From Candidatus Uhrbacteria bacterium (GTDB lineage: Bacteria; Patescibacteriota; Patescibacteriia; UBA9934; GWF2-40-263), in the NCBI GenBank assembly GCA_016188475.1, contig JACPHT010000001.1, positions 138 to 64,137 on the forward strand: 64,000 nt of DNA, in the 5' to 3' direction. The notes under the pieces are model-generated. The model saw nothing but the letters and a program-made list of their open reading frames with translations, did not search any database and was not told the DNA's origin. Each line of letters starts with the position of its first letter. Position 1 is the first letter of the stretch. This document shows, in pieces, positions 26,009 through 57,479 of this stretch. The position numbers and the translations under genes were made by a program.

Positions 26009-26142
26009 CCTCGACCGTTGAAATACCATGTTCGTAAGCTAAATTTTATTCCCTGAGCCTATCGAAGGGAATAATGTACAAAAAATAATATTTACTGCCT
26101 TCGATGTTGCTCAGGCAATAATTAGAGTTTTTCAACGGTCCC
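26009..26142. repeat. composite palindromic element with two CCTGAGC-TCGAAGG cores in opposite orientation, flanked by CCTCGACCGTTGAAA / TTTCAACGGTC inverted repeats
   Basis: Cores at 26051-26070 and 26095-26114 match the family found in leuS, trxB, truB and intergenic sites. Confidence 0.6.
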
Positions 26143-26395
26143 TCACCAACTAAAATAAAAAGGGGGTGCGGTGAAGCACCCAAAGCAGAGAGAATGATTG
26201 TCCGATGGGACTAGATGATTTCGAGCTCGCACCCATTCTTCTGGAAGACAGAAGCGCTTTGATCAGACCTCGAGGACTGACGCGGCACTGCGGACGTATA
26301 TATTTTATCATAAAATATGACATACTTCAGTAAAAATAGAAGAACTGGGGATAATTCAAAACCGCCCTACGTTGTTCGAAGAGCGGTTTTTATTT
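26143..26395 (+). ncRNA. candidate structured small RNA ending in an intrinsic terminator
   Basis: No credible ORF; hairpins GGGUGC-GGUGAA-GCACCC and CUUCUG-GAAGA-CAGAAG; motifs CUAGAUGA and ACAGAAG that loosely recall RNase P RNA CR-IV/CR-V; ends with ACCGC...GCGGT hairpin plus TTTTTATTTTTT. Confidence 0.2.
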
Positions 26396-26675
26396 TTTGT
26401 GCCTCACGTTGGAATGGGTGTCATAGAATATGATCAACGTAATCGGATTCTTCTTTCCGTATGTCAGGCGATGATGGCAGTTTTTATCCACCAAGTCGAT
26501 TTGACATCGGTCAATTCCGTCAGGTCCTGTTGTCTGGCAAACCAGTTACACATGGACCGAAAAGTTGTTTGAAATCATGGACAAACCCACCCTGACGCGA
26601 GGCAATATAAATATACCATTCTGTTAAAATTATGCAAGTTTGCAATAGGCGACAAATCCACTAACAATCCACAGG

Positions 26676-27446
26676 CTAATCAATAACAATTTCTCTGATA
26701 ATCGAGTCCGATCCAAATAAATCAAAAACTGTTTGATTAAAAACGCATGAAGATTTTGAGACAAAAAATGTGTTCAACCCTTCCCCTTCAACATTAAATG
26801 TTTTTACTGCCTCGTCAGCAACAACATCGCTTGGATCAAACAACTCAATCTCATATCCACGTTCCTCAAACATGTGTGAAAAAACCGAGCGTGCAAACGG
26901 AAATTGTGTACAACCGAAAACCAATAACTTTGCGTGAATGTCTATCGCCTTTTGAACTGCTGGCGAAATAATCTCTTCAAGTTCCGATCCGCTTGCCTGT
27001 CTCTCAATTGCCTCTGCAAGTTTTGGCAAAGCAATTGACTCAGCAGACAATCCATGTTGTGTAAACGCTAGCTCGTAGATTCCTGATCGAACTGTTGCAA
27101 GCGTTGCCGCAATCAAAATTTTTCCGCGTGTCCGTTTACAAACAGCTCTTACCGTTGGAGCCACCATTTCAATCACACGCGTTTTTGGAATTTCAAACAA
27201 ATCAGCGAGCGGAGCAATCACAGCAACAGACAAACAATTGCAGGCGGCCACGAATTGAGTTGCGCCTTGCGACTTCAAAAATTTCATAGCGTGCAAAGTG
27301 AGTTCAAGCAATTCCTCTGTTTTTCTCGGACCATAAGGCATGTTCGCAAAATCGCCAAAGTAAACAAGATCGGCTCTTGGAGCTTTTTTTCGAATTTGGC
27401 TGGCAACGCCAAGTCCACCTATTCCTGAATCAAAAATTCCAATCAT
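26676..27446 (-). CDS. murI: glutamate racemase
   Basis: MIGIFDSGIGGLGVAS... and conserved Cys motifs; start at the internal Met giving a 4-bp overlap with the upstream gene. Confidence 0.85.
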   Translation of the reverse strand: MIGIFDSGIGGLGVASQIRKKAPRADLVYFGDFANMPYGPRKTEELLELTLHAMKFLKSQGATQFVAACNCLSVAVIAPLADLFEIPKTRVIEMVAPTVRAVCKRTRGKILIAATLATVRSGIYELAFTQHGLSAESIALPKLAEAIERQASGSELEEIISPAVQKAIDIHAKLLVFGCTQFPFARSVFSHMFEERGYEIELFDPSDVVADEAVKTFNVEGEGLNTFFVSKSSCVFNQTVFDLFGSDSIIREIVID

Positions 27447-34675: not shown

Positions 34676-37078
34676 TTATTTCACAACAATACTTACGATT
34701 CGTCCCTTCACATAAACAACTTTTTCAACTGTCTTACCTTCCAGATATTTTTTAACTTTTTCGTTTTCGAGAGCCAACTGTTTTGCAATTTTTTCTTCAA
34801 CATCAGGAGAGATTTCTAAAATTCCTCGAACTTTTCCATTCACCTGAACAGCGACCGAAATGATTTCCTCTTTTGCCAGTTCTTGATTGTGTATTGGCCA
34901 ACTTTGTTGTTCAAGAAGTTCTTTTCCACCAAGTTGTTCATGAAGTTCGTTTGACAGATGCGGCGCAAATGGACAGAGTAAGCGCAAAAATATCATAAAA
35001 CTTTCTTTTGAGATCGATCCGTTCTCTTTTGCCGCGTTCACAAAAATCATCATCTGCGAAACAGCTGTGTTGAAATGCATGTGTTCAATATCATCCGTGA
35101 CTTTTTTGATTGTTTGATGAAGTAAACGAGTGATCTTTTCTACTTCCGACTTTTCAGACCTTTCAGACTTTTCAGACCTTGTTGCCACATCTCCAACTTT
35201 CTCCAAAAACCTTCTCATACCAACAAGTCCGTTCATGCTCCACGGAACAGGTTCACCAAATGGACCCATAAACAATTCATACAAACGGACTGAATCAGCT
35301 CCGTACTCACTTACCATTTCATCTGGATTCACAACATTGCCTTTTGACTTCGACATCTTTGTTCCATCTTCTGCCAAAACAAGACCATGGCTTGTTCGCT
35401 TAGCATAAGGTTCGCTCACAGCAACATGTCCGCGATCAAACAAAAACTTATTCCAAAAACGTGAGTACAAAAGATGAAGTGTTGTGTGTTCCATTCCGCC
35501 GTTGTACCAATCAACAGGCATCCAATGTTTTAATTTTTTCTTGTCCGCAAACACTTTTTTATTTTTTGAATCAATGTACCGTAAAAAGTACCAACTTGAT
35601 CCTGCCCAATTTGGCATTGTGTCTGTTTCGCGTTTGGCAGGACCTCCACACTTTGGACATTTTGTATTTACCCAATCATGAATCGCGGCAAGAGGCGACT
35701 CGCCATTTTCTGTTGGTTCGTATTTTTCAACATCAGGCAATTGCACAGGAAGTTGTTTTTCTGGGACCGGAATCCACCCACACGCTTCACAATACACAAG
35801 TGGAATCGGCTCTCCCCAATACCTTTGGCGTGAAAAAACCCAATCACGAAGTTTGTATTGAACAGACTTTTTCCCGCCAGATTTCTCAATCGCTTCATCA
35901 AATGAAATGAGCGATCTGTCAACAATCGGTAGCCCAAACTTTTCAGCAAACTCACAATCTCGCTTGTCATGTTGAGGAACAGCCATCACAGCTCCTGTTC
36001 CATATTCACCCAAAACGTAATCAGCGACCCACACAGAAATTTTTTCTTTGTTTGCCGGATTGATGACAAACACGCCTGTTGGAACTCCTGTTTTTTCTTT
36101 ATTCTCTGCCTCGCGTTCTTTTTTATCTCGCTTGAGCGCTTGTTCAATATATCTTTTAACTTCTTCGCTCGACCTCCAACCATCTGCGATCCATTGTTGA
36201 GCTAACTCCGGAGAAATCACCAAAAACGTCGCGCCTAGAATTGTGTCAGGGCGAGTTGTGAAGACCTCGATCGACTCAACATCAGGAGATTGCTTCGCAG
36301 AGTTTACCATGAGCGAAGACAAATTTAAGCCTTCGACAGGCTCAGGCAATAAATTTGTCGAAGTCGAATGACTCACAATGACAAAACTGATTTTCGCTCC
36401 TTCGCTTTTTCCAATCCAATTTTTTTGTTGCGTTTTTATTTTTTCCAAATAATCAACTGTGTCCAAATCTTCCAACAACCGATCCGCGTATTTTGTGATC
36501 GCGATCATCCATTGCGCTTTTTCACGCTTCTCGGTCGGCCCGCCGCAACGTTCGCATTTTCCATCAACAACTTCTTCATTTGCCAAACCGATCTTGCACG
36601 ACACACACCAATTGATCGGCATCTTTGCTTTGTACGCAAGTCCTTCTTTGAAAAATTCCAAAAACATCCACTGCGTCCATTTGTAATATCCAGGATCGGT
36701 CGTATTCACTTCACGAGACCAATCAAAACTCAAACCAAACGATTGAAGTTGACGCTTGAACGTCGCGATATTTTCCGCTGTAACGTCTTGTGGTTTGCGT
36801 CCTGTTTTGATCGCGTAGTTTTCTGTTGGAAGTCCAAACGCATCCCAACCGATTGGATACAAGACATTGAAACCTTCCATTCTCCGCTTGCGAGCAACAA
36901 CGTCCATTGCCGTATAACTTCTCGGATGGCCCATGTGGAGTCCAGCGCCTGACGGATATGGAAATTCAATCAAACAATAGTACTTTGGTTTTTTTGATTT
37001 ATCTTGCGCTTGAAAAACACCGGCTTGTTCCCAGCGCTTCTGCCACTTTTTTTCAATTTGCTTGTGATTATAAGGCAT
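34676..37078 (-). CDS. leuS: leucyl-tRNA synthetase, carrying an in-frame palindromic-element insertion
   Basis: MPYNHKQIEKKWQKRW start; HMGH and KMSKS class I motifs; ORF track extends to 37105. Confidence 0.95.
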   Translation of the reverse strand: MPYNHKQIEKKWQKRWEQAGVFQAQDKSKKPKYYCLIEFPYPSGAGLHMGHPRSYTAMDVVARKRRMEGFNVLYPIGWDAFGLPTENYAIKTGRKPQDVTAENIATFKRQLQSFGLSFDWSREVNTTDPGYYKWTQWMFLEFFKEGLAYKAKMPINWCVSCKIGLANEEVVDGKCERCGGPTEKREKAQWMIAITKYADRLLEDLDTVDYLEKIKTQQKNWIGKSEGAKISFVIVSHSTSTNLLPEPVEGLNLSSLMVNSAKQSPDVESIEVFTTRPDTILGATFLVISPELAQQWIADGWRSSEEVKRYIEQALKRDKKEREAENKEKTGVPTGVFVINPANKEKISVWVADYVLGEYGTGAVMAVPQHDKRDCEFAEKFGLPIVDRSLISFDEAIEKSGGKKSVQYKLRDWVFSRQRYWGEPIPLVYCEACGWIPVPEKQLPVQLPDVEKYEPTENGESPLAAIHDWVNTKCPKCGGPAKRETDTMPNWAGSSWYFLRYIDSKNKKVFADKKKLKHWMPVDWYNGGMEHTTLHLLYSRFWNKFLFDRGHVAVSEPYAKRTSHGLVLAEDGTKMSKSKGNVVNPDEMVSEYGADSVRLYELFMGPFGEPVPWSMNGLVGMRRFLEKVGDVATRSEKSERSEKSEVEKITRLLHQTIKKVTDDIEHMHFNTAVSQMMIFVNAAKENGSISKESFMIFLRLLCPFAPHLSNELHEQLGGKELLEQQSWPIHNQELAKEEIISVAVQVNGKVRGILEISPDVEEKIAKQLALENEKVKKYLEGKTVEKVVYVKGRIVSIVVK
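36290..36395. repeat. palindromic element inserted in-frame in leuS
   Basis: GATTGCTTCGCAGAGTTTACCATGAGCGAAGACAAATTTAAGCCTTCGACAGGCTCAGGCAATAAATTTGTCGAAGTCGAATGACTC; near-identical copy in trxB; encodes NLLPEPVEGLNLSSLMVNSAKQS in LeuRS. Confidence 0.8.
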
Positions 37079-37094
37079 ACTAAATTTTAGACCT

Positions 37095-37185
37095 TGGTCT
37101 GTCATCCTGAGCCCTTCGACTTCGGTAAAGTTATCGCCTGAGCCTGTCGAAGGCCATAACTTTACCTTCGCTCAGGGTATAAACT
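37095..37185. repeat. palindromic element copies (reverse orientation) upstream of leuS
   Basis: CCTGAGCCCTTCGAC and GGTAAAGTTAT-CGCCTGAGCCTGTCGAAGGCC-ATAACTTTACC. Confidence 0.7.
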
Positions 37186-37352
37186 CCGTGAAGAATCTTT
37201 TGTTTAGAAGATCATTCGCTACGCTCAGAATGACTGAAACGCAATTCATTATTGATCCTATCACGGCGATCATAACAAAAATACGAACCGTTGACAAAAC
37301 CGAATGATTTTGATATCTTAAAAAGCCGTCACACAAAAGAATAGGAGGCAGA

Positions 37353-44035: not shown

Positions 44036-44064
44036 TCAGCTCTTGAGTTTGAATTTAAACTTTT

Positions 44065-45446: not shown

Positions 45447-45689
45447 GTTCCTGCGTATGCGATGTTTGCCAGTGGTATAATTGCACGAAGTGCTTACCAC
45501 TGGCAAATATGGGTGGAGGCTTGCGGAGGTACGAAGCAAGCCGTAACCGCATACGCAGTGTTATATGATGTACATGTTTTCCTTTAATTTCTGAAAGAAA
45601 TTGCTCTTATAAAAGAATCCGGTTTTGTTTTTCCGTTTGGGGCGAAGGGCAGAGGGGATTAAGGGGTGAATGCCCGAGCCCCAAACACT

Positions 45690-46298
45690 TTAATCTTCTT
45701 CACCCTCAATTCTTTTTCTGCGCTCATCTAGCGTTTCGCCTTCATACATCCAATAAGCTGTTCCTTGAATTCCGTAATCATAACCGAGAATTTTTTGTGC
45801 AGAAGAAGAAAGACTTGTAACTTTGCCATTAAAATTGATGGATTTATTATCAACCACATTTGCCTTAATGTTTTCATCGCGACTAAAAATTAATTCTGCA
45901 CCAACCGGAATGTTGACCATCTTAAAATTAAACTTAGCTCGCATTTCTGCACGTGCTTGATTTAGGGCATGCTGATCTTCTTTTGATTCCACGAAGTCTT
46001 TTTTAGGCGTAATATCTTCAATCTCTGCCAATTTAAGTGCAGAAACTACACGTTCTGGAGAGATTTGAAAAAATTCTCGTCTTGGATTTGTTCGGTTATT
46101 GTCAAATGCATCATGTAGCTGATGTTCAACAAAGGCTGCGTCTTTTACGGTACATGCGTAGAAACAAGTAAAAGGAAGTGGAACGCTCGTGGAAGCGCTA
46201 AGCTCTCTAATCCTTTGCTCAAGGCTTGTTGAAGTTTTGCCAATTTTTACATATCCAGGCATGGCTTCATTGATGAGAATGTAGATGATTTCAATCAT
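45690..46298 (-). CDS. T5orf172 (GIY-YIG-like) domain protein, second gene of the candidate defense pair
   Basis: IYILINEAMPGYVKIGKT...RIREL...PLPF...RREFF matches the T5orf172 pattern; start ATG overlaps the upstream stop (ATGA). Confidence 0.6.
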   Translation of the reverse strand: MIEIIYILINEAMPGYVKIGKTSTSLEQRIRELSASTSVPLPFTCFYACTVKDAAFVEHQLHDAFDNNRTNPRREFFQISPERVVSALKLAEIEDITPKKDFVESKEDQHALNQARAEMRAKFNFKMVNIPVGAELIFSRDENIKANVVDNKSINFNGKVTSLSSSAQKILGYDYGIQGTAYWMYEGETLDERRKRIEGEED

Positions 46299-48013
46299 AA
46301 TTTTATAGATTTATTTGGTGCTAAAAGTTCCTTAATTTTTGAAATTAAAGGTTTGAAATTCCCAAAAGTATCCGAGCTGGTTTCAGCTTGAACTTTATTT
46401 AAAAATTTGCCTTTATCGAAAGTGGTGATTGACGTAGTTGCACTATATGAGCCAGGTCTTACTTCCGTAGAGTAAACGTCATCTGTGAATAAGGTATCGG
46501 GGTATAGATTTTCAATGCCAACAGCTTTTCCATCTTTATCTTTAGCCTTTGTATTTGCAGAATTTTCCGCAAAGCAAAACTTTTTAAAGCTTTCTGTTTC
46601 TGTAATGCTGTTTATCATGGAGGCGCAGTCACAATCCCAAACAAAAAGGAACTTTCCGCTAAAATCACCGGACGACATTACGTCAAAAGCGTTTTTCAAC
46701 TGTTGCCCGCGCTTATCTGGCGAACCTTCTATAATTTTAATTTGACTAAGTAAAGTGTTGTCGAGGATTTCAAAAGCTTTTTTAATATGCTCTGTATTAT
46801 TTCCCTCCGTAACAATTTGTAAACTTTTCGTGCCATCAATCTCTTTTTGTATTTTTAAACCCTTTTCAAAGGTTATGATCCCCTCGCTTAAAAGGTTAAT
46901 AGCGTCTCCCTGTGATATTTTTCTGATTTTTTCATTTTTTTTGCCCTTCTGTATCTCAAATAGTGATTCTTCATATGCTAATGCGACCGTGGTCGGAGAA
47001 TGGGTAGCAAGAATAACCTTACAGCCGTTTTTTATGAACACATTTTGAATCACATCCAATAAATCTTGAATCATGGATGGATGAAGTGATGCATCTACTT
47101 CATCAAGAAGTAACAATGCAGGAAATTCTGATTTGTTATCTTGATAAACTGTAATAGCCAGTGCGCACAATATCTTTTCACCCGATGACAAGTCTTCAAA
47201 ATCAATTTCTTCATCATCTATGGAGAGTTTTACTTGAAATGATACAGCTTGACTATTTATCAGATCTCCAGCTGTAAATTCTGGATGTGAAATAGTATGA
47301 AGTAGCCCAAACTCTTTAAACATGCTGTTTACAAAATTCCATGGAGATTGTTCTTCTATTTTTTTGATTTGGCTATCGTTTAATCCTTCTCCGCCGTCGC
47401 TTTCTCTTAATTTTGCCACGGTTAGTTTTTTTTGATAATCAAGAAAAACTTCGCTTAAACTTTCTAGAAGCTCGTACTCATCTGGGCTGTAGTTTGAAAA
47501 TTTAAAAAATTCTGCCTGTGTGATTTCCGAAGCGTATTTAACAGACTCGAATACGCCCGTTTTTAAAAGCTTCTTAATTTTGGGATTATCTTTTGTATGC
47601 TTATTTATAAAGGTTAGAATATCCTTTTTTTGTTCAGCGTATTTTTGTTTTTGTGCTTTTGGCACTTCAAAATCATAGGGGTACTCCTTTTCGCCCACGA
47701 ATGTTTTAATTTGATTGTCGTAATTTTGGAATTGTTGCCTTTGAGAATTTAAGATATTCCACGCTTGCATTTTTTCATCATCAAGATTCCGTGGGGCAAT
47801 TTTAGCCTGGTTCTTTATGAGAAATGTTTGTAGGTTAAAGTACGAAATCCTTTCTTTTTGTATGTTGTCAGCTGAAACAAAGCCCTCTTGCATCGCCTTG
47901 AGCAAGTGAGTTTTTCCAGCGCCGTTTACACCTAGAAATATCGAAAAGTCCTTAATATCAATTTCACTAAAGTTGGCGATTGATTTATGTTTTTGATTGA
48001 ATTTAATATTCAT
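46295..48013 (-). CDS. OLD-like ABC-type ATPase fused to a C-terminal TOPRIM-like nuclease domain
   Basis: Walker A GVNGAGKTHLLKA, ABC signature LSSGEKI, Walker B LLLLDEVDASLHP, H-loop ATHSP; C-terminal IVTEGNNTE ... FVWDCDC resembles TOPRIM Glu and DxD. Confidence 0.6.
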   Translation of the reverse strand: MNIKFNQKHKSIANFSEIDIKDFSIFLGVNGAGKTHLLKAMQEGFVSADNIQKERISYFNLQTFLIKNQAKIAPRNLDDEKMQAWNILNSQRQQFQNYDNQIKTFVGEKEYPYDFEVPKAQKQKYAEQKKDILTFINKHTKDNPKIKKLLKTGVFESVKYASEITQAEFFKFSNYSPDEYELLESLSEVFLDYQKKLTVAKLRESDGGEGLNDSQIKKIEEQSPWNFVNSMFKEFGLLHTISHPEFTAGDLINSQAVSFQVKLSIDDEEIDFEDLSSGEKILCALAITVYQDNKSEFPALLLLDEVDASLHPSMIQDLLDVIQNVFIKNGCKVILATHSPTTVALAYEESLFEIQKGKKNEKIRKISQGDAINLLSEGIITFEKGLKIQKEIDGTKSLQIVTEGNNTEHIKKAFEILDNTLLSQIKIIEGSPDKRGQQLKNAFDVMSSGDFSGKFLFVWDCDCASMINSITETESFKKFCFAENSANTKAKDKDGKAVGIENLYPDTLFTDDVYSTEVRPGSYSATTSITTFDKGKFLNKVQAETSSDTFGNFKPLISKIKELLAPNKSIKL

Positions 48014-48192
48014 AGTTTACTTCAAGTGTGGAAATCACAAATTGGCGTTATTTTACTCCGTTTCCTCCTATAAATAAATCGTTTTCGGAGCGGAGCGTAG
48101 AAAACTCCTTATTTCCCCTCTATAAAAAAAGAAAAACAAAACCGGATTCTTTTTAAGAGCTTGGCGAAGCCAAAAAGGAAAACATGTATTTC

Positions 48193-48340
48193 ATATAACG
48201 GCTGGCGGCTGATCCGAAGTAAAAAGACACCTGACGTTTTTATGTTACAGGTGTCTTTTTATTTTGGATAGCCGCCTGTTGTGCGACGTCGCTTTGCGAC
48301 GGAGCGCAACAGAGGCGAAGCCGCCGGCCGTTATGCCGAC
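48193..48340. repeat. cassette-junction element, copy 5
   Basis: Near-identical copy (CGGCTGG variant at the left arm). Confidence 0.85.
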
Positions 48341-48481
48341 AGAGGCGGAACAAAAATTTGGGAGAAGGAATTTTTCTTACCTTGAATTATAAATGTGAAA
48401 AATTCCTGAACCGGATATGCCGTGTTGTGCGATGTCCGCATTTGCCCGCCCTTGTTAGTTGGAAATGGATGCCCCGAAATC

Positions 48482-49060
48482 TTATTGCAAAATCTTTTCC
48501 AATAGTTCAGGAAACTCCTCGGTTTTCATATCGCCCAAGCAGTAATGACCTCGCCCTTTTAGCTCGACAATCTCGCCACCAAGCACCTCATGAAAAATTT
48601 TTAAACTTTTTTTACCGTCTTCCTCCTCGTCGTCCGCAGTGAACATAACTATTTGATTTATCCTATCCTTGATAGACGAGTCAATCTGATATGTATAGAA
48701 ATTTACATCGGTACCACTTCTTTTTTCTTGCGGAATTTTCCAAGGCGCGACTAAAAAAAGTTTAAAAATTTTGGTCTTAGTCTCACTAAGCCAGCGAACC
48801 AAGAAGGCGCAACCGCAACTATGTCCAACTAAAATTGTGTTTTCATCAACAGTATATTTTTCAAATTCAGCCTTAAATTTTTCATAATCAGGTTGCCAAG
48901 GCGAGGGCATGAGAGGAGTTTCCGTTTCAATATTTTTTGCAATAAGATTTCTTTTTAACCACGGAATCCAGTGCTTGTCATAAGTCCTTGTTTCAGGATT
49001 CATCGCTTTTTCAGCATCAGAGGGGCATCCATGGATTATGATACATCTATTCTTTGTCAT
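48482..49060 (-). CDS. cassette-encoded alpha/beta hydrolase (RBBP9/YdeN-like serine hydrolase)
   Basis: IIIHGCPS ... LVGHSCG nucleophile elbow. Confidence 0.55.
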   Translation of the reverse strand: MTKNRCIIIHGCPSDAEKAMNPETRTYDKHWIPWLKRNLIAKNIETETPLMPSPWQPDYEKFKAEFEKYTVDENTILVGHSCGCAFLVRWLSETKTKIFKLFLVAPWKIPQEKRSGTDVNFYTYQIDSSIKDRINQIVMFTADDEEEDGKKSLKIFHEVLGGEIVELKGRGHYCLGDMKTEEFPELLEKILQ

Positions 49061-49325
49061 ATGGTTGAATGTTATTTTTAGCACTAGGGCAAATGCGGAT
49101 TTCGCACAACGTATCCAAATATCTGAAGTTTCGCACTTTGGTTTTAAGGCTAAAATCTTTGATATCCAGACTATTTTGTTAGTTTAATTATACTATACAT
49201 TATCACAAAACGGAAAAGTGCGAAATTTGGGTCGAGAAAATTTTTCACTCTTTATTATTTCTAATAAATGAAAAATTTTGGAGCCAGATATTTGGTGTTC
49301 AACGATGTTGCGAGGATTTTCGTTT

Positions 49326-49547
49326 TTATTTCTCAGAATGTTTTAATTTAATCAAATCATATATTGCAGAAACGGTAAAAATAATTTGCAAAATAATAAA
49401 TATTAAATCGCTTAGGTAAATACTGTATATTTCCAGGCATACTCCGCCAACAATATACATCAAGTCCTGCGTACGACGATTTTTATTTATAATGCCAGCG
49501 GATATTAATAATAATCCGACCGCGCCTATCATCTTAAAAATTGACAT
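49326..49547 (-). CDS. cassette-encoded small membrane protein
   Basis: About 73 aa; three hydrophobic helices. Confidence 0.4.
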   Translation of the reverse strand: MSIFKMIGAVGLLLISAGIINKNRRTQDLMYIVGGVCLEIYSIYLSDLIFIILQIIFTVSAIYDLIKLKHSEK

Positions 49548-49594
49548 ATTATTTTGCAAATTATTTTGTTTTCAGGAAAAAATCCTCGCAATTT

Positions 49595-49700
49595 CGTTGA
49601 ACGTTCACCGATAAGCGAAGTTTTATTGAGCAAAGCGAAATAAAATTTGCGAAAAACTCGGGCTGAGAGTTTTTCCGCTTATCGCGTTGTTATACGCCCC
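49595..49700. other. attC-like site
   Basis: TTGAAC-GTTCACCGATAAGCG...CGCTTATCGCG-T-GTTATAC. Confidence 0.55.
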
Positions 49701-49758
49701 GAGCGAAACGAAGTGTAGCGAGAGCGCAGCGTGGTGCGGAGCGTAGCGGAGCAAGTTG

Positions 49759-50262
49759 CTAATTTGCCCGTTTCATCTGCTGGACTTTTTTTAAAAACAC
49801 AATATCTCTTTGCTGAATAAAAGAACCCTCATAATTTGTTGGTTTATCGTTTTCAACTTTGGAAATTGCTTCATCTAATGGCAACCAAACGAGTTTAAAG
49901 TTTTGGCTTAATTCCTCTTCCGTGAAAGCAGGCGACCCTTTTGATGTTATTTTGCCTATATAACAATAGGATATTTGTTTCAAATTGAAATTTGAACGAT
50001 ATTCAATAATTTCCCCAACTTCACCAGTGACTTTAATTTCACTCCCGACTTCTTCCATAACTTCGCGGACCAGAGCTGCGGCCTTATTTTCGCCATCGTC
50101 GATTCCGCCGCCAGGTAATTTGTGATAGTTATAATTTGAAACAAATAGAAGAGGAATTAAGCCATTCTCGTCAAAAAGCACAGCTCTTGATGCTTCTCTA
50201 ATTTCCAAAGTTGATTCATCTTTAGGCCACTCTTTGTCTTTTATCTCGTGTAATAGTTCCAT
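49759..50262 (-). CDS. cassette-encoded NUDIX hydrolase
   Basis: Nudix box GGGIDDGENKAAALVREVMEEVGSE. Confidence 0.8.
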   Translation of the reverse strand: MELLHEIKDKEWPKDESTLEIREASRAVLFDENGLIPLLFVSNYNYHKLPGGGIDDGENKAAALVREVMEEVGSEIKVTGEVGEIIEYRSNFNLKQISYCYIGKITSKGSPAFTEEELSQNFKLVWLPLDEAISKVENDKPTNYEGSFIQQRDIVFLKKVQQMKRAN

Positions 50263-50323
50263 AGTAAATTATGAGGGTTCTTTATTTTTATAAATGTATC
50301 GGCAAGGGCAAATTAGCAATTGC

Positions 50324-50468
50324 GTATAACGGCCGGCGGCTGATCCGAAGTAAAAAGACACCTGACGTTTTTATGTTACAGGTGTCTTTTTATTTTGGAT
50401 AGCCGCCTGTTGTGCGACGTCGCTTTGCGACGGAGCGCAACAGAGGCGAAGCCGCCGGCCGTTATGCC
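50324..50468. repeat. cassette-junction element, copy 6
   Basis: Near-identical copy. Confidence 0.85.
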
Positions 50469-50549
50469 ATTACCGCCTAAGCGAGAGAAGGATGGCGTAT
50501 ACGCGCTGTTGTACGATTGCAGAACACCAACTTGAATTATGTAATCTTG

Positions 50550-51158
50550 CTAAATAGTAGTATGGACAAAGTCGTAAAATTGAGAAAAGTCTTTGACGAC
50601 AATAGACGGATTGCCGTTAATTAAATTTTGTTCATTTTGGTAACCACCAAGAATTCCAACAATTATTTTCACACCAACCTTCTTAGCTTCAGCAATATCT
50701 CCGGCTGTGTCGGTAATAAAAGTAACATTATTGGGTTCCAGAGCATATTTTTCAAATAGCATCTTAAATTTTTCTACCTTGCTTGTATGAACCTCATTGC
50801 CAAGAATCTTTTGAAAACAGGATAGTATGCCATGGCTCTGAAGATAGTCTTGAATGATATCACTTCGAGTACTTGAAATAATAAATAGTTGGAACTCTTG
50901 TGATAATTTTTGAATAAAGTCTTTCTTTTTTGAATCAATACCTAAATGTTTGAAACGGTCCCCGTACTCTCTAAAAAAGTCTATTTTTTTTACGACTTTG
51001 TCCTCGTATTTTACTTCATTAATATTACCATTGAAGGCATTTTGATATCGCTCCAAAGTTAAAGTTGGCCTTGAGAGCTTATTCACTTCAAAAGCTATGT
51101 CAAAACTATCAGCGATTACTCCATCAAAGTCGAAGATAATAGTAGGCTTATGATCCAT
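50550..51158 (-). CDS. cassette-encoded HAD-family hydrolase
   Basis: IIFDFDGVIADS motif I (DxDG). Confidence 0.7.
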   Translation of the reverse strand: MDHKPTIIFDFDGVIADSFDIAFEVNKLSRPTLTLERYQNAFNGNINEVKYEDKVVKKIDFFREYGDRFKHLGIDSKKKDFIQKLSQEFQLFIISSTRSDIIQDYLQSHGILSCFQKILGNEVHTSKVEKFKMLFEKYALEPNNVTFITDTAGDIAEAKKVGVKIIVGILGGYQNEQNLINGNPSIVVKDFSQFYDFVHTTI

Positions 51159-51189
51159 AGATCTTAAATAAAAGGGTGTTCTGCTTTTC

Positions 51190-51305
51190 GTACAACGTTC
51201 GCGCATAAGCGATGTTTGCCAGTTGTATAATATGCCGTTAGGCTTACAACTGGCAAATATGGGTGGAGCGACGAGGTACGAGGAGCGGAACCGTTTATGC
51301 GCTGT
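51190..51305. other. attC-like site
   Basis: GTACAAC-GTTCGCGCATAAGCG...CGTTTATGCGC-T-GTTAAGT with internal TTTGCCAGTTGTA/TACAACTGGCAAA dyad. Confidence 0.55.
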
Positions 51306-51326
51306 TAAGTGATGTGTTTGAGAATT

Positions 51327-52034
51327 CTACTTCAAATAGGTTTCCAGATTTTTGACCATTCGCCCCACATAAAGGTTTAGGCTTTTTTGGCCAATTTCCT
51401 TATTAACAATCCAATCGGGATGATTATCTGCAATTCCATTCGGACTTTTTTCAGCTATATTATCAGTTTCAAAGGCATCTTCGATGAAGGTCTTTTTTTC
51501 GTCTTTGCTTGGCGGAATGACAGTCGCTTCATCTATTACCATCATGTTTGAAATTTCGGTATTGCCTGCATGTCCATCTGATGGACCGCCAAGCATTTCA
51601 ACAAGCTTTTGTTCATCCTCATCGTTGCACATCTCAAGATGAACTATTTTAGCGGGCTGAAAAAAGTCCGATTTTTCTCGGATAAACTTTTGAATATATG
51701 GGTCATTATGATGAAACGATGTAATGAAAATATAATCTGCTTTTTGAAAAATAGAATTGCAGATATCAAACATTACTTGAGCAAGTGTTTCTTCGGTAAG
51801 ATAGACTGTGCCAAAAAAGCCACGGTGCTCTTGTGCACGAGAGAACTCTAACGTTGGAAGAATTACCAGCTCAGGAAACTGTTTCTCAACTTGATCAACA
51901 AGATAGTCAGTAATATACGTGTCAGTACCGAAGGGGGCGAATGGTCCATGTTGCTCAAGCGAACCTATTGGAACGACGAAATTGTATTTTGTATCACCAG
52001 ATAAATCTGGAAACCTCATTCTTTTTAATCTCAT
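51327..52034 (-). CDS. cassette-encoded creatininase-family amidohydrolase
   Basis: VVPIGSLEQHGP ... GTD ... GHAGNTE motifs. Confidence 0.65.
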   Translation of the reverse strand: MRLKRMRFPDLSGDTKYNFVVPIGSLEQHGPFAPFGTDTYITDYLVDQVEKQFPELVILPTLEFSRAQEHRGFFGTVYLTEETLAQVMFDICNSIFQKADYIFITSFHHNDPYIQKFIREKSDFFQPAKIVHLEMCNDEDEQKLVEMLGGPSDGHAGNTEISNMMVIDEATVIPPSKDEKKTFIEDAFETDNIAEKSPNGIADNHPDWIVNKEIGQKSLNLYVGRMVKNLETYLK

Positions 52035-52065
52035 ATTTTTAGTATAGATGAATTCTCAAACATTT

Positions 52066-52214
52066 CACTTAACGGCCGGCGGCTGATCCGAAGTAAAAAG
52101 ACACCTGACGTTTTTATGTTACAGGTGTCTTTTTATTTTGGATAGCCGCCTGTTGTGCGACGTCGCTTTGCGACGGAGCGCAACAGAGGCGAAGCCGCCG
52201 GCATGTCGGCATAA
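52066..52214. repeat. cassette-junction element, copy 7 (short variant), proximal to the recombinase
   Basis: Near-identical copy about 155 bp from the recombinase start. Confidence 0.85.
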
Positions 52215-52371
52215 CTAGTAAATATACGAACTTGTGTCGGATAAAATACTTTGAAAATGAATTATATGATGTGAGTAACCTGCGTTGACAAGTACATGAA
52301 ATCATGTAACAATAAGATTGTAAATAACCTCCTATTCTAATCTTGATGGGCGGTTTTTTTATATCTTCAAT

Positions 52372-53202
52372 ATGTTTTTAATTTCTAATACCGAACAAGC
52401 GTTGTTGTCTATTGACCAACTTCTACGCATAAAAAATTACAGTCCAAAAACAATAAAAAGTTACAAGGGCTGTTTGGCTAGATTCTTAAAACAGTTTCCT
52501 GATTGTTTGAACTATTCAAACATCGAGTGTATCAAAACATTCCTTTTATCCATGCGCGAATCTGGATTATCTCCTCAAACTATCAATGTACATCTTCAGG
52601 CAATACAATTTTATTTTCGTGAAATCTTACATCAACCATTCCGTTTCACTCTACCATACGCAAAACGACCGAAACGGTTGCCTGTCATACTTTCTAGATC
52701 AGAAATTGAACAAATTCTAAACCATATATCAAACACAAAACATAAAACCATGATCGCTCTGGCTTATGGGGCGGGACTCCGTGTCTCTGAAGTGGTTGAG
52801 TTGCGCTCTGGAAACGTAGATTTTCCTTCCGGAGTTTTATATATTTATCAAAGTAAAGGCAAAAAAGATCGTATAACAATTCTTCCAGAAATATTGCGCG
52901 ATGAATTACAAAAAGCGGTTTGTGGAAAATCACCGAACGATTATCTTTTTGCCAGCGAACGAGGCGGACGTTTGTCTGAACGTTCAATTCAAAAAGTATT
53001 TTCTCGTGCGCTTCATTCAACACAGATAAACAAACAAGCAACATTTCATTCACTGCGTCATAGCTTCGCAACACACGTTTTGGAACAAGGAACTGACATC
53101 AGATTCATTCAAAAACTTCTTGGCCATGCAAATATTAGAACAACACAAATTTACACTCACGTTTCAACAGCTTCTATCAGTGCAATCAAAAGCCCGCTAT
53201 AG
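52372..53202 (+). CDS. tyrosine site-specific recombinase, integron-integrase-like (XerC/D superfamily)
   Basis: R...HSLRHSFATHVLEQGTDIRFIQKLLGH...TTQIYTHV catalytic core; LPVILSRSEIEQIL and GAGLRVSEVVELRSGNVDF...YQSKGKKDRIT segments resemble IntI as recalled; transcribed divergently from the cassette array; appears to lack the long IntI-specific insertion. Confidence 0.7.
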   Translation: MFLISNTEQALLSIDQLLRIKNYSPKTIKSYKGCLARFLKQFPDCLNYSNIECIKTFLLSMRESGLSPQTINVHLQAIQFYFREILHQPFRFTLPYAKRPKRLPVILSRSEIEQILNHISNTKHKTMIALAYGAGLRVSEVVELRSGNVDFPSGVLYIYQSKGKKDRITILPEILRDELQKAVCGKSPNDYLFASERGGRLSERSIQKVFSRALHSTQINKQATFHSLRHSFATHVLEQGTDIRFIQKLLGHANIRTTQIYTHVSTASISAIKSPL

Positions 53203-53212
53203 ACAAAATAAT

Positions 53213-54319
53213 TTATTCCCGTGAGAGCCACCTCTCAGCATCAAGAGCGGCAACACAACCCGAACCGGCGGCTGTGACAGCTTGGCGATAATACGGATCA
53301 ATCACATCGCCTCCAGCAAATACTCCTTCAACACTTGTTTTTGAAGTGTTTGGTTTCACAACAATATATCCTTTGCGATCAAGTTCAAGTTGATTGACAA
53401 ACAAATCTGTGTTTGGTTGATGTCCAATCGCGACAAACAATCCATCAGCGGAAAAATCTGAAACAACGTTTGTGACATTATTCAAAACTCGAACTGCATT
53501 CATTCTTTTTCCATCGCCTAGAACCTCTTGAACTTCTGTGTTAAACATAAATCCAATCTTCGGATTCTTCATCGCTCGCTCCTGCATAATCTTTGACGCG
53601 CGCAACTCATTTCGTCTGTGTATCACTGTTACTTTGCTTGCAAAATGTGTAAGAAAATTCGCTTCCTCCATTGCCACGTCTCCGCCACCAACCACAATAA
53701 CGTGCTTGTCCTTGAAAAAAAATCCGTCACACGTTGCGCATGCGGAAACGCCGCGACCTTGATATTCTTTTTCACCTGGAACATTCAACCACAATGCTTT
53801 CGCGCCAGTACAGATAATAATCGCTTGGCTTGAATATACCGCTTCGTTTGTTTTTACAATAAATGGTAAAGATTGCTTCGCGGAGTTTACAATGAACGAA
53901 GATAAATTTATGCCTTCGACAAGCTCAGGCAATAAATTTGTCTGGGTCGAATGACTCGAAATGATATTTTTTTGTTCGACAAGCTCAGGCAATAAATTTA
54001 TAGGAGTCAAAGGGCTCGTAGTGACGGTCTTTTGTCGAGCGGAAAAATCAACTGAAACCACATCGTCGCTCACAATTCGAGTTCCAAATCGTTCAGCTTG
54101 TTTCTTGAAACGTTCCATGAGTTCTGGTCCAATTAACCCTTCTGGAAATCCGGGAAAATTTTCAACTTCGTTTGTTAACATCAACTGCCCTCCAGGCTGT
54201 CCGCCAATCTGTTTTCCTTCAAACAAAAGCGGTCGCAACTGCGCGCGCGCCGCGTAAATTGCCGCCGTATATCCAGCCGGACCAGAACCGATAATGATAA
54301 GATTTTCTGACGTACTCAC
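53213..54319 (-). CDS. trxB: thioredoxin reductase carrying an in-frame palindromic-element insertion
   Basis: GSGPAGYTAAIYAARA FAD motif, CATC redox site, GGGDVAMEEA NADPH motif. Confidence 0.9.
   Translation of the reverse strand: MSTSENLIIIGSGPAGYTAAIYAARAQLRPLLFEGKQIGGQPGGQLMLTNEVENFPGFPEGLIGPELMERFKKQAERFGTRIVSDDVVSVDFSARQKTVTTSPLTPINLLPELVEQKNIISSHSTQTNLLPELVEGINLSSFIVNSAKQSLPFIVKTNEAVYSSQAIIICTGAKALWLNVPGEKEYQGRGVSACATCDGFFFKDKHVIVVGGGDVAMEEANFLTHFASKVTVIHRRNELRASKIMQERAMKNPKIGFMFNTEVQEVLGDGKRMNAVRVLNNVTNVVSDFSADGLFVAIGHQPNTDLFVNQLELDRKGYIVVKPNTSKTSVEGVFAGGDVIDPYYRQAVTAAGSGCVAALDAERWLSRE
53872..54010. repeat. palindromic element (one full copy plus one partial copy) inserted in-frame in trxB
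   Basis: Cores GCCTTCGACAAGCTCAGGC at 53912-53930 and GTTCGACAAGCTCAGGC at 53974-53990; encodes NLLPELVEQKNIISSHSTQTNLLPELVEGINLSSFIVNSAKQS. Confidence 0.8.
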
Positions 54320-54338
54320 AAAATATAGAAATTATATT

Positions 54339-54357
54339 GCCTTCGACAGGCTCAGGC
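54339..54357. repeat. palindromic-element core in the trxB-trxA spacer
   Basis: GCCTTCGACAGGCTCAGGC flanked by ATTATATT / AATAATTT. Confidence 0.6.
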
Positions 54358-54365
54358 AATAATTT

Positions 54366-54677: not shown

Positions 54678-54680
54678 ATT

Positions 54681-56741
54681 TTATCTTTGACGAATTCCTT
54701 CAATTTTTAATTTTTGAGCAATGCTTTCTTCTGAATACGCTTCAAGCAAATCCCCTTCTTCAGGTTTAATTTTGCCGATGTAACTTATCCCAATCTCTTG
54801 ACCTTCTTTTGCTTCTTTCATTATTGACTTTCCAAGCTGCAAACTCTCGATAGAACCTTCGCCAATATATTCTCCATTTCTTGATAAGCGCAATTTCGCT
54901 CCGGGTTTCAAACTTCCTTTTTTCACTCGTCCGCCAATAATCCAGCCCTTGTCGTTTTTGTGAAAGTTCTTGAGCACTCCGAACGTTCCGAGTTCTGTAA
55001 CAACCTGTTCTGATGGAAGCATTTTTTGCATATCAACCATGATTGCTTCGAACAATTTGTAAATGATCTGATATTGTCGAATTTCAACTTTCTTGTCGCG
55101 CGAAAGTTGTTCAGCTGTTGTTGTTGGACGGACATTAAATCCTATGATGATCGCATGCGCGGCTTCAGCGCTTAACACATCAGAATCAGTAATGTTGCCA
55201 AGTCCTTTTTGAACAACCTTCACACCAACTTTATCATGATGAATCTTGTCGAGCATTCCCAAAATTGCTTCAAGCGACCCAAGAACATCACATCTGATAA
55301 TAAGATTCAAAACTTGTTTTCCGCTGTCTGATGATTCCACAGATTCGTCGTGAGATTGCAAATGGCGAATTGAAGCGACCTCTTCAGTAGCTTTGAACGA
55401 GGAGTCGGTTGATTTGATTCTTTTAAGCTCAGTTGATTTATCCGGAACTTCCATTATGTCTCCAACCGCTGGCGCAATTTTCCATCCAATAATTTTTGCA
55501 GGTGTTGAAGGAGGAGCTTCAGTGATCGCGTCGCCTTTCCAGTCTTGCATTGCTCGCACGCGACCATAAAGAGTGTCATGAACTGAAAGCGTGTCTCCAA
55601 CATGCAATGTTCCGCTTTGAACAAGCACTGTTGCGACAGGCCCAGAGCCTGAATCAACATGAGACTCGATTGTTGTCCCAAGCGCGCGATGATTTGGATT
55701 CGCGACAATGCGTTCTTTTTCCATGTCAGCAACAAGAATAAGTGTGTCAAGCAGTCCTTCAATGTTCGTTCCTTGTTTTGCTGAAATCAAAGACACTATT
55801 GTCTTCCCTCCCCAATCTTCAGGAACCAAATTTAGTTCTGACAATTCGCCTTTAACTTTATCAATGTTTGCTTCTGGTCTATCTATTTTGTTGATCGCGA
55901 CAATAAATGGAAGCCCTGCGGATTTGATAATATCAATCGCCTCTTTTGTTTGCGGCTGAACTCCATCATCAGCGGCAACAACCAAAATCGCGATGTCAGC
56001 TACTTTTGCGCCACGCGAACGCATAACAGTAAAAGCCTCGTGACCTGGAGTATCAATAAAAGTTATGTGCCTTCCATTTCGTTCAACTTGATACGCTCCG
56101 ATATGCTGTGTAATTCCACCAGCTTCAGATTCCATTACGTTCGTTTTTCGAATGGCATCGAGAAGTTTTGTTTTTCCATGATCAACGTGCCCCATCACAA
56201 CAACAACAGGAGCTCGCGGAAGTAAATTTTCGTCGACTTCTTTTTCAACACGATCGCGAATTTTTTCAAGGCCTCCAGTGTCTTCCTCTTTTGACTTTTC
56301 TTCTTGCACTGGAGCGAAACCAAGATCTTCAGCAATGATACTTGCTGTATCAAAATCAATTTGCTGGTTGATCGAAGCTAAAATTCCATTCTTCATTAGC
56401 TCTTGCATGACTCTAGGAACTGGCAATTCTAAACTTGATGCAAAATCTCGAACAGAAATCTTGGCTGGAATAGAAACTGGCTTGCGTTGAGCTGGTTCAA
56501 TGTCTTGTTTTCTGTCTGTATGAGACTTTTGAATTTCAACTTTTTGCGCTAGTCTTTGCTTGCGCATCATTTCAGCCCAAGCTTCAGTTATTTTTTGAGC
56601 CTGGCGGTTATCAATTTTGATTGCGCGCTGGCCAACACTAAAACCAAGCTCTGGCAATTTGTCGCGCAAGAGATTCGGGTGGACTTTCAGTCGTCGCGCA
56701 AGTTCGGTAATATTCATAAAATCAACACGAGTGTAATTCAA
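54681..56741 (-). CDS. infB: translation initiation factor IF-2
   Basis: [17 protein letters not shown] GTPase motifs; 686 aa. Confidence 0.95.
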   Translation of the reverse strand: MNYTRVDFMNITELARRLKVHPNLLRDKLPELGFSVGQRAIKIDNRQAQKITEAWAEMMRKQRLAQKVEIQKSHTDRKQDIEPAQRKPVSIPAKISVRDFASSLELPVPRVMQELMKNGILASINQQIDFDTASIIAEDLGFAPVQEEKSKEEDTGGLEKIRDRVEKEVDENLLPRAPVVVVMGHVDHGKTKLLDAIRKTNVMESEAGGITQHIGAYQVERNGRHITFIDTPGHEAFTVMRSRGAKVADIAILVVAADDGVQPQTKEAIDIIKSAGLPFIVAINKIDRPEANIDKVKGELSELNLVPEDWGGKTIVSLISAKQGTNIEGLLDTLILVADMEKERIVANPNHRALGTTIESHVDSGSGPVATVLVQSGTLHVGDTLSVHDTLYGRVRAMQDWKGDAITEAPPSTPAKIIGWKIAPAVGDIMEVPDKSTELKRIKSTDSSFKATEEVASIRHLQSHDESVESSDSGKQVLNLIIRCDVLGSLEAILGMLDKIHHDKVGVKVVQKGLGNITDSDVLSAEAAHAIIIGFNVRPTTTAEQLSRDKKVEIRQYQIIYKLFEAIMVDMQKMLPSEQVVTELGTFGVLKNFHKNDKGWIIGGRVKKGSLKPGAKLRLSRNGEYIGEGSIESLQLGKSIMKEAKEGQEIGISYIGKIKPEEGDLLEAYSEESIAQKLKIEGIRQR

Positions 56742-56759
56742 AATTCAAATAATGTCTAT

Positions 56760-57479
56760 ATGAATGGATTTTTGCTTATCAATAAACCGGAAGGACCGAC
56801 ATCTCATGATATTGTTGATTCTGTACGTAGAAATATCCAACCTCCGACTTCCAACCTCCGACTTCCGAAAGTTGGGCATGCCGGAACGCTTGATCCTTTT
56901 GCATCTGGACTTTTAATTGTTGGCGTTGGACGCGAAGCAACGCGTGAAATGCAAAAACTTGTTGGTTTAGATAAAACTTATGAGGCAGTGTTTGTTTTGG
57001 GAGCTTCATCTGATACTGATGATAAAACTGGGAAAATAACTTTGGTCCATCCACAAGAACCTTTGACGCAAGAACGTGTTCAAGAAGCTCTCAAACAATT
57101 TATTGGTGAAATAGAACAAACGCCACCGGTATATTCCGCGATAAAAATAGGCGGAAAAAAAATGTACGAAGCCGCTCGTGAAGGAAAACCAATAGAAGCT
57201 AAAGCAAGAGAAGTGACGATATATTCCATGAGCGAAGTCCAGTTTATCCCTTCGACTAGCTCAGGGAATAAACTGGACAAAGTCGAACGGGCGACTATCT
57301 CTTTAACCATTCACTGCTCATCCGGCACATATATCCGCGCGATCGCGCGAGATCTTGGGCAGGTGCTTGGCACTGGCGGATATGTTGAATCTCTTCGTCG
57401 AACAAAAATCGGACCGTTCGATATTTCTGAATGTAGCGAGTCAATTATTCCAATAAGTGCCTTTTTATCGAGGCTTTGA
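56760..57479 (+). CDS. truB: tRNA pseudouridine(55) synthase, carrying an in-frame palindromic-element insertion
   Basis: MNGFLLINKPEGPTSHDIV..GHAGTLDP..; ORF track extension to 56556 overlaps infB and is not translated. Confidence 0.85.
   Translation: MNGFLLINKPEGPTSHDIVDSVRRNIQPPTSNLRLPKVGHAGTLDPFASGLLIVGVGREATREMQKLVGLDKTYEAVFVLGASSDTDDKTGKITLVHPQEPLTQERVQEALKQFIGEIEQTPPVYSAIKIGGKKMYEAAREGKPIEAKAREVTIYSMSEVQFIPSTSSGNKLDKVERATISLTIHCSSGTYIRAIARDLGQVLGTGGYVESLRRTKIGPFDISECSESIIPISAFLSRL
57210..57300. repeat. palindromic element inserted in-frame in truB
   Basis: CCATGAGCGAAGTCCAGTTTATCCCTTCGACTAGCTCAGGGAATAAACTGGACAAAGTCGAACGG; stem arms changed compensatorily relative to the leuS copy. 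Confidence 0.75.

Follow-up and report, generated by a model that had tools for sequence, protein, structure and literature searches.

What are the short palindromes that recur in a 64,000-nucleotide stretch of a Candidatus Uhrbacteria genome (contig JACPHT010000001.1, positions 138 to 64,137, hereafter the window), and how did they come to stand both between genes and inside them? Genomes of the candidate phyla radiation (CPR, Patescibacteria) are about 1 Mb in size and are usually called streamlined, and the genes of this window include those for RNase Y, LeuS, TrxB, Trx, IF-2, TruB and a XerA/integron-like tyrosine recombinase. The original prediction listed nine copies of a 19-20 bp core between complementary A/T-rich arms, in both orientations and in coding and intergenic positions, and took them for a mobile palindromic element resembling the Rickettsia palindromic elements (RPEs) and the repetitive extragenic palindromes (REPs). 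Our results agree with this assignment, as we found in-frame inserts in housekeeping genes, depletion of copies from coding DNA, co-varying arms, and sites that are filled in one genome and empty in another. We consider it probable that the copies are a non-autonomous, hairpin-forming family of selfish DNA of the REP, RPE or miniature inverted-repeat transposable element (MITE) kind, resident in this genome.

Anatomy of the hairpin family

When the window was searched for the 19-mer GCCTTCGACAGGCTCAGGC with up to three mismatches, five matches were obtained, at 26051(-), 36329(+), 37136(-), 53912(+) and 54339(+), and none in 100 shuffled controls. A 15-mer core with the same mismatch limit gave 11 matches against 1.04 expected and newly caught the copies at 37106(-), 53975(+) and 57251(+), and the variant-loop copy at 26098(+) was recovered by a looser regular expression. 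The family motif CCTTCGA(N3-4)GCTCAGG, or a near variant of it, was found in these mismatch and regular-expression searches at all nine listed positions; the family is real and non-random, and the whole window holds no copies beyond 26-57 kb. As a number of separate copies, nine stands only in part, because the 37105 copy is the outer 'clamp' half (GTCGAAGGGCTCAGG) of a composite that holds the 37136 copy and has no hairpin of its own, the 53974 copy has lost its 5' arm, and the 26095 copy, with a different loop (CGATGTTGCTC), hardly folds alone (z = -0.6). Folded as single-stranded DNA and compared with dinucleotide shuffles, the hairpins of the remaining copies reach z values of -2.9 to -6.5.

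The conserved unit, here called H, is approximately 24-30 nt long and asymmetric (TTAT-N-GCC TTCGACARGCTCA GGCAATAA), with a near-invariant loop of 11-13 nt and a short conserved stem in which one base is bulged or mismatched beside the GCC/GGC pairs. The arms quoted in the original prediction are as described; the conserved part is longer and less symmetric than stated there, reaching from TTAT-N-GCC to GGCAATAA, variation is confined to the outer 4-7 bp of the arms (copy-specific yet complementary), and the core mostly forms the inner layer of something larger. In most cases, H is enclosed as the innermost layer in a nested palindrome of about 65-165 nt and is surrounded by a clamp motif that is related to H (left half CCYGAGCGRAG, right half CGRAGTCGARGG); at four loci the innermost H lies at the centre of the clamp CC(C/A)TGAGCGAAG / CGAAGTCGAAGG, between CGAAG direct repeats. 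A third, outer module, GTCATTGCGAG...CGAAGCAATC, can enclose the clamp, and in leuS and trxB it reads GTCATTG(C/T)GAG ... GCGAAGCAATC.

Every layer is inverted with respect to the layer that surrounds it. The core is inverted relative to the clamp in all ten clamp-plus-H composites, which represent about eight independent loci, and has the same orientation in none, and on both sides of the inner unit stands a 4-5-nt repeat, in direct orientation, of the central loop of the clamp, which reads CGAAG or CGGAG. Filled clamps, whether the filling is 4-5 nt, a small GC-rich hairpin or H, have matching 4-5-nt junction repeats (CGAG...CGAG with shorter fillings, CGGAG...CGGAG, CGAAG...CGAAG), and unfilled clamps have the repeat as a single copy. 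The middle-plus-H units of leuS and trxB are 86% identical over 93 nt, and since the identity includes the arms, these two units are copies of each other, and composite units also move whole.

The stems are maintained by paired changes. Among 11 aligned nested copies, 88% of the cells are paired against 72% in shuffles, 7 of the 13 pairs have changes on both sides, the observed covariation score was reached by none of 500 shuffles, and pairing collapses to 21-49% when the register is slid. Over 128 copies, the arm complementarity amounts to 4.6 paired positions versus 3.7 ± 0.12 with permuted partners, and approximately half of these copies have short arms only. The compensatory change in truB, from GCC/GGC to CCC/GGG, from which the original prediction concluded that the hairpin itself is under selection, is present as described; the covariation means that pairing is maintained, but selection on a function is not thereby shown, as pairing could also be a requirement of the insertion mechanism or a by-product of it.

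Sites inside and between genes, and their state in relatives

The family is found in both orientations in coding as well as intergenic DNA, as had been claimed, namely in frame in leuS, trxB and truB (96, about 165 and about 63 nt, respectively, with no stop codons) and at three intergenic loci (26 kb, upstream of leuS, and the trx-trxB spacer). In leuS, a three-layer composite at 36287-36382 (- strand) adds 96 nt in frame and encodes the peptide VIVSHSTSTNLLPEPVEGLNLSSLMVNSAKQS; its outer layer is GTCATTGTGAG...GCGAAGCAATC, its middle clamp CATTCGACTTCG...CTTCGCTCATGG, and its inner H (36318-36359, + strand, copy 36329) has the form GACAAATTTAAGCC-TTCGACAGGCTCA-GGCAATAAATTTGTC, with a folding energy of -10.7 kcal/mol (z = -5.9). 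LeuS has here about 30 residues that are additional to the NCBIfam LeuS profile and to the Thermus thermophilus LeuRS structure 1H3N, in which a 6-residue stretch between the catalytic core and the editing domain stands in place of the insert. The nested composite in trxB (53868-54033, - strand) adds approximately 165 nt in frame, i.e., 55 extra residues, at a position that is one residue in the Mycobacterium smegmatis TrxR structure. It has the outer module GTCACTACGAG...GCGAAGCAATC, a full middle-plus-H unit with H at 53900-53943 (copy 53912) and a partial second H at 53975-54004 (copy 53974), so that TrxB holds 1.5 copies. Two Logan contigs from the source population (L208 and L210) both end in trxB near residue 116, within the inserted repeat.

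The clamp-plus-H composite in truB (57227-57291, + strand, copy 57248) is in frame, has the order CATGAGCGAAG-H-CAAAGTCGAACGGG with H at 57237-57278, encodes the peptide SEVQFIPSTSSGNKLDKVER and folds with -12.3 kcal/mol (z = -6.5). Its core has the reverse orientation relative to the gene of that in leuS and trxB, and the core peptide is PE(P/L)VEG in leuS and trxB and PSTSSG in truB; NLLPEPVEGLNL is an example of an insert-encoded peptide. Inside genes, only in-frame, stop-free inserts at tolerant sites were seen. Five contigs that were assembled independently, from different sequencing runs, all encode a TruB of identical sequence with the insert, and the inserts are therefore not assembly artefacts. 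The 5' region of truB also has a tandem 12-nt duplication (56841-56866, CCTCCGACTTCC AA CCTCCGACTTCC), the reverse complement of which (GGAAGTCGGAGG) resembles the right half of the clamp; it coincides with an extra TruB stretch, NIQPPTSNLRLP, that is present in the window and a few orthologues and is missing from most Uhrbacteria.

Of the intergenic loci, the one at 26 kb (26013-26140, no strand assigned) is a composite palindrome of 128 bp with inverted repeats GACCGTTGAAA at 26013-26023 and 26130-26140. It contains two H cores in opposite orientation, hairpin A (26046-26074, - strand, copy 26051, TTATTCCCTGAGCCTATCGAAGGGAATAA, z = -2.9) and the variant-loop hairpin B (26092-26121, + strand, copy 26095, GCCTTCGATGTTGCTCAGGCAATAA, weak alone as given above), which pair with each other as the arms of one long hairpin (-24.5 kcal/mol, z = -5.6). 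The same pair of terminal inverted repeats (TIRs) is present at three further loci (L076, L085 and L114), spaced 115-125 nt, so that the element is known from four genomes, and flanking repeats were seen next to the GAGACCGTTGAAA TIRs in three of the four copies (TAAAC, GGTTT and CCTC; 5 bp in two of the further loci, CCTC in the window). In 776 kb of element-bearing loci, no TIR pair spaced more than 135 nt was found, i.e., no full-length parent insertion sequence (IS) with the same ends was found there. Boxes conserved after core B (GAGACCGTTGAAAAACTC and similar) were considered as ends of genes and rejected, being the TIRs of this MITE-like element of about 128 bp.

The composite upstream of leuS (37101-37234, + strand, 134 nt) is bounded by GTCATCCTGAGC and GCTCAGAATGAC and consists of the clamp half at 37106-37124 (copy 37105) and an H at 37124-37166 (copy 37136, core on the - strand); the true start of leuS is the ATG at 37078 on the - strand, and the composite lies just upstream of it. 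A lone H hairpin (54325-54364, + strand, copy 54339, z = -3.9) stands between the trx stop and the trxB start, in a spacer of 46 nt. Wholly inside it, at 54331-54359 on the - strand and facing trxB, lies TTGCCT-17-TATAAT, which agrees with the sigma-70 consensus at 10 of 12 positions and is a consensus match only, with its -35 box from the conserved TTATTGCCTGAGC and its -10 box from the arm.

How stable are these sites among close relatives? Three relatives with 78-93% nucleotide identity were available, L044 (genome DeMMO2_27) for the leuS region, L127 for infB-trx-trxB and L207 from the recombinase gene to the end of the window. Three states of the trxB site were seen: the 165-nt composite of the window, a 39-nt insert with GTCATTGCGAGCGAAGCGAAGCAATC only in L127, and an empty site (FSVR/PFIV) in L207 and L128. 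As read from these alignments, the three states show a site that has grown in steps, by insertions into the centre of a module already in place. The trx-trxB spacer, which is 46 nt long with its hairpin in the window, has 13 nt in L127 and 8 nt in L207 and is hairpin-free in both. The composite of about 134 nt upstream of leuS is part of a block of about 190 nt, the whole of which is missing from the orthologous intergenic region of L044; the insert within leuS is also present in L044 and is therefore older.

In TruB, the loop between V-x-IYS and L-x-IHCSSGTYIR is variable among Uhrbacteria orthologues, most of which have no insertion. The clamp-plus-H composite is found there in the window, in L207 and in the more distant L215, in which the arms are wholly different but complementary, while L214 has a GTCATTGCGAGG...CCTCGCAATGAC dimer and L216 a GTCATCCCGAGCGGAGTCGAGGGATC module in the same loop. 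Comparison of orthologous loci shows in this way that copies have been gained or lost between close relatives, and the polymorphism at three sites, among relatives with 80-93% nucleotide identity, supports the mobility that had been proposed. We also considered whether the arms are templated from the flank of the target, as hinted by the ATTAT kept beside the trx-trxB insert; this is supported neither by L207, the spacer of which is unrelated, nor by the nested copies, in which the arms are unrelated to the flanks. Two further length differences were noted in these relatives, approximately 670 nt extra with a 141-residue open reading frame (ORF) between trxB and the recombinase gene of L127 (3357-4029), and a 41-nt insert in a tRNA-synthetase gene of L207 (10975-11015), which corresponds to window position 60205.

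Restriction of the core to this window would have spoken against a mobile family. In a scan of one genome per species, the exact 21-mer TTCGACARGCTCAGGCAATAA (the core plus an AATAA extension) was found in at least 92 stretches in more than 40 metagenome-assembled genomes (MAGs), at least 13 of these stretches being in DeMMO2_27, the closest relative; among the matches listed, the MAGs are labelled Uhrbacteria, Kazan, Parcubacteria, Portnoy-, Doudna- and Sungiibacteria, "Saccharibacteria" and unclassified Patescibacteria. The bare 19-mer is present in 34 IMG/VR stretches with a GC content of 0.41-0.71 and unrelated flanks. Plasmids and chromids of cultured Sphingobium, Novosphingobium, Comamonas, Polaromonas and Moraxella contain a GC-rich version of the hairpin, CCGTTCGCCCTGAGCCTGTCGAAGGGCGAACGG, with as many as 20 sites in a single record and every one in unannotated intergenic DNA, and inverted dimers are found both at 26 kb in the window and in Sphingobium. 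Among 79 TrxB-bearing metagenome loci (683 kb), taken as a roughly unbiased sample, there were three occurrences of the core at two loci against 0.015 expected. The loop motif is widespread but patchy. Only 26% of the 128 copies lie wholly in open frames of at least 200 codons, compared with 66% of random positions, which is what would be expected for insertions filtered by selection. Some taxonomic labels deserve caution: L085 and L053 are labelled Gammaproteobacteria, yet they give 70-72% nucleotide matches to window genes (RNase Y, tRNA-synthetase), so that these labels are doubtful; those of L071, L086 and L092 also look unreliable, and three element-bearing contigs are titled Nanoarchaeota.

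For the biology of these bacteria, this means that even the genes of an aminoacyl-tRNA synthetase, a thioredoxin reductase and a tRNA pseudouridine synthase bear nested selfish inserts, and that these are not the same in close relatives. As regards annotation, the inserts inflate and diversify proteins, seed spurious ORFs (e.g., PELVEG and PSTSSG peptides) and break assemblies. A core of 17-24 nt common to dozens of CPR lineages and to Sphingomonads, Comamonas and Moraxella points to an ancient or highly transmissible minimal mobile unit.

Known systems, mechanism and rival explanations

The nearest behavioural counterparts are the Rickettsia palindromic elements RPE-1 to RPE-8, reportedly described by Ogata et al. 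in 2000 and 2002. As with RPEs, the Uhrbacteria copies are short palindromes that lie between genes and in frame in housekeeping genes of a bacterium with a small genome, the peptides that they add stand at tolerant sites, and no transposase is known. Here, however, the host is a member of the Patescibacteria and not of the Rickettsiales (the comparison being one of behaviour), a loop-centred core of 24-30 nt is conserved with variable outer stems instead of the conserved 100-150 bp of RPEs, the copies stand in nested layers of alternating orientation, and the core is common to many CPR classes and some Proteobacteria.

RPE-4 and RPE-6 have been equated with CGTC REPs (PMC3733652), and the CGTC and GTAG REP superfamilies include elements that are intragenic, nested in other palindromes or dimeric, CGTC REPs being without a dedicated transposase (Di Nocera, De Gregorio and Rocco 2013, PMC3733652). 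The Uhrbacteria family shares with them the 20-40-nt stem-loops, the frequent inverted dimers, and the location of some copies in other palindromes and in genes; in size (a 20-40-nt imperfect palindrome), high copy number and inverted dimers, it is of REP type. The outer module, (C/T)GTCATTGCGAG...GCAATC, looks CGTC-like, with CGTC/TGTC followed by AT at its start, as in CGTC REPs (GACCGTCACTACGAG in the window, CTGTCATTGCGAG in L127). The H core, unlike CGTC and GTAG REPs, has neither the GTAG/CGTC tag nor the CCA tail, and its loop has 11-13 nt versus 4-5 nt in CGTC REPs; the text of PMC3733652, figures aside, does not contain the motif CCTGAGC..GTCGAAGG.

The 26013-26140 element is similar to bacterial MITEs such as Correia/NEMIS, Nezha and QMITE1/2: it has TIRs and a 4-5-bp flanking repeat, is about 128 bp long, contains no ORF and is present in several genomes. 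The nested H units differ from MITEs in having copy-specific arms and no conserved terminal repeats, although 4-5-nt direct repeats do flank them. QMITE1 and QMITE2 of Coxiella overlap ORFs and carry promoter-like sites (PMC5896051). An identity with these two, suggested by the GC content and the general look of the motif, was rejected, as the window encodes RNase Y and CPR-type genes and a TruB 100% identical to an Uhrbacteria protein, and neither the QMITE architecture nor the DUF1658 peptides of QMITE1 match.

Palindrome-associated transposable elements (PATEs) derived from IS200/IS605, and REPs mobilised as doublets that form hairpins (REPINs) by REP-associated tyrosine transposases (RAYTs), offer a further parallel: the hairpins would be recognised as folded single strands, and the short oligonucleotide CGRAG beside the foot of the hairpin, on both sides, could represent the cleavage sites. 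By analogy, a single-strand mechanism like that of IS200/IS605 or REPIN appears the most plausible one. The differences are that PATEs and REPINs conserve their stems within a genome, while the H stems vary, and that no Y1/HUH transposase was detected in the window or, with approximate queries, in the 776 kb of element-bearing loci.

Elements of this kind are known already. What appears undescribed is the family itself, its nested alternating architecture with loop duplication and the combination of a conserved loop with a variable stem, as well as its spread across CPR into Proteobacteria and the load that it places on essential genes of a streamlined genome. Searches of the literature by DNA string, encoded peptide and keywords (open text, figures excluded) found no description of the motif or of such CPR elements, and the keywords gave only general REP and MITE papers.

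To outline a possible mechanism, new copies would preferentially enter AT-rich spacers or the exposed loops of hairpins that belong to the same superfamily and are already in place. Such an insertion would duplicate the target loop, the 4-5-nt repeats being target-site duplications, and the inverted orientation could result from complementary-loop pairing of the incoming and the target hairpin or from a strand-specific single-strand DNA mechanism. The chemistry would be done in trans by the product of a gene elsewhere, the best guess being an HUH/Y1-type or other structure-specific transposase, and insertions into genes would survive only where an in-frame insert is tolerated. Host effects are probably mostly neutral, consisting of an extra peptide at tolerant sites of proteins, with possible side effects such as the promoter-like site before trxB. 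Strict inverted nesting and loop duplication offer a concrete way to test how REP/RPE-type elements spread when they have no transposase, a question of long standing.

Several points weigh against a selfish family that moves in this way. The flanking 4-5-nt repeats are near-identical in all nested copies and could belong to a composite that moves as a unit, and the non-nested sites (the trx-trxB spacer and the outer module of trxB) have no convincing target-site duplication. This reading does not account for the way in which outer arms that are copy-specific and yet perfectly complementary arise, no insertion was caught between near-identical strains, and each contrast of filled and empty sites formally could be a precise deletion. 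No transposase was found in the window, including the IS200/IS605 TnpA or RAYT type for which the original prediction had advised to look, and tblastn with IS200 and IS608 TnpA gave no hits below E = 1 in the 776 kb of element-bearing CPR loci, a weak negative given that the queries were approximate.

A bolder variant does without any element-encoded transposase: the 17-24-nt loop would do the work in a mobile hairpin that is ultra-small and pan-bacterial, loop-loop 'kissing' (e.g., between the TGAGCCTGTCGAA and TTCGACAGGCTCA hairpins) would direct inverted insertion into a resident loop with duplication of its 4-5-nt centre, and host replication or repair enzymes or a widespread structure-specific nuclease would provide the chemistry. 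Kissing-loop insertion would build alternating nested layers and would explain a loop conserved across phyla while the stems vary; we nevertheless regard it as rather unlikely.

The same strong conservation of the loop across phyla, together with the maintained pairing, might instead indicate elements that the host has kept in place for a function in RNA or DNA, such as termination or attenuation, mRNA stabilisation, promoter activity or the binding of proteins. An action as RNA elements is assumed for many REPs (PMC3733652), and the trx-trxB copy contains the best sigma-70-like match of a 19-kb scan, facing trxB. On the other hand, the promoter and terminator counts of that scan are not above those of shuffles, and a search of Rfam 15 yielded nothing at gathering score over the window as a whole, nor, with E values of up to 5, in 36200-37300. 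Copies that lie in frame in leuS, trxB and truB in both orientations, orthologous sites that are empty in relatives with the same gene order, and a single protein loop that holds unrelated modules in different lineages are also difficult to reconcile with a host function, which we consider improbable. A ribozyme or structured RNA, suggested by a hammerhead-like CUGA...GAA resemblance, was rejected in view of the missing Rfam matches and the in-frame copies in both orientations; a tRNA- or tmRNA-derived origin was rejected likewise, as the window has no tRNA or tmRNA gene and the TTCGA that resembles a T-loop is closed by the wrong pair.

It is equally difficult to accept that quasi-palindromes arose in place by replication errors (template switching, slippage or hairpin-primed synthesis) with no moved copies, as an identical core of 19-24 nt is present at hundreds of unrelated loci in more than 40 MAGs and on Proteobacterial plasmids, for which independent origin is impossible, and as the leuS and trxB units with their shared arms are mutual copies. 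Such errors would account for the short tandem pentamer expansions in the clamp loop (CGAAG-CAGAG-CGAAG, CGAG-N5-CGAG), the copy-specific and perfectly complementary outer arms, and the 12-nt tandem duplication of a related motif in truB (56841-56866); as a full explanation, we give them a small chance, and template switching may have shaped the arms after insertion. Least probable of all, and in our opinion very remote, is that the hairpins are recombination sites of the attC/attI kind for the neighbouring integron-like tyrosine recombinase (52372-53202). A canonical attC cassette array and a divergent tyrosine recombinase do lie within the coordinates of the family, and attC also acts as a folded single strand with extrahelical bases. 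However, H lacks the R''/L''-L'/R' boxes and the GTTRRRY crossover site, its conserved loop and variable stem are the opposite of attC, it is located inside essential genes and off the cassette boundaries, and many H loci show no such array. The selfish hairpin family is therefore the reading that we prefer.

Neighbouring array and other repeats

The integron-like cassette array extends over 39800-53202 and adjoins the short Xer-like recombinase. It contains at least seven copies of a 105-nt repeat that are 97-100% identical (41673, 43011, 44497, 45277, 48172, 50318 and 52062), between which lie unrelated small genes, all on the - strand: cupin, HNH-like, two NUDIX, T5orf172, a 572-residue AAA_21/AbiEii-like ATPase, Ser hydrolase, HAD and creatininase. 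On the gene strand, the repeat has the order GCACAAC - AGGCGGCTATCC - central hairpin - GGATCAGCCGCCGGCC - GTTRRRY, with the identity ending right after GTT, and judged by this order of boxes, the repeats at 41.6-52.2 kb have the canonical attC anatomy with extrahelical bases. The tyrosine recombinase (52372-53202, + strand, 276 residues) is divergent, falling just under the XerA and integron-integrase cut-offs, and appears to be without the IntI-specific extra domain (profile positions ~178-251). The 105-nt repeat is also present in L207 and L044, and the cassettes of L207 differ. This attC-type array beside the hairpin family may merit a separate study.

Two other dispersed repeats were noted in the window. 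A MITE-like palindrome of about 120 nt with the ends GATCTTTGCAAAACT...AGTTTTGCAAAGATC lies at 6863-6970 and 11576-11682, and a third copy, with 89-91% identity, is in L095. An element of about 70 nt is found on opposite strands at 1020-1097 and 22603-22669; its interior (GGAACAGCGGCGACAGTCCGATGGCCTGGAG) is conserved and is closed by a long stem (GCGGTAGCACTATGTC...GACATAGTGCTACTGC). This element has no Rfam match, is also present at six loci of relatives (L036, L042, L063, L070, L107 and L112), and could represent a further repeat family or a structured RNA.

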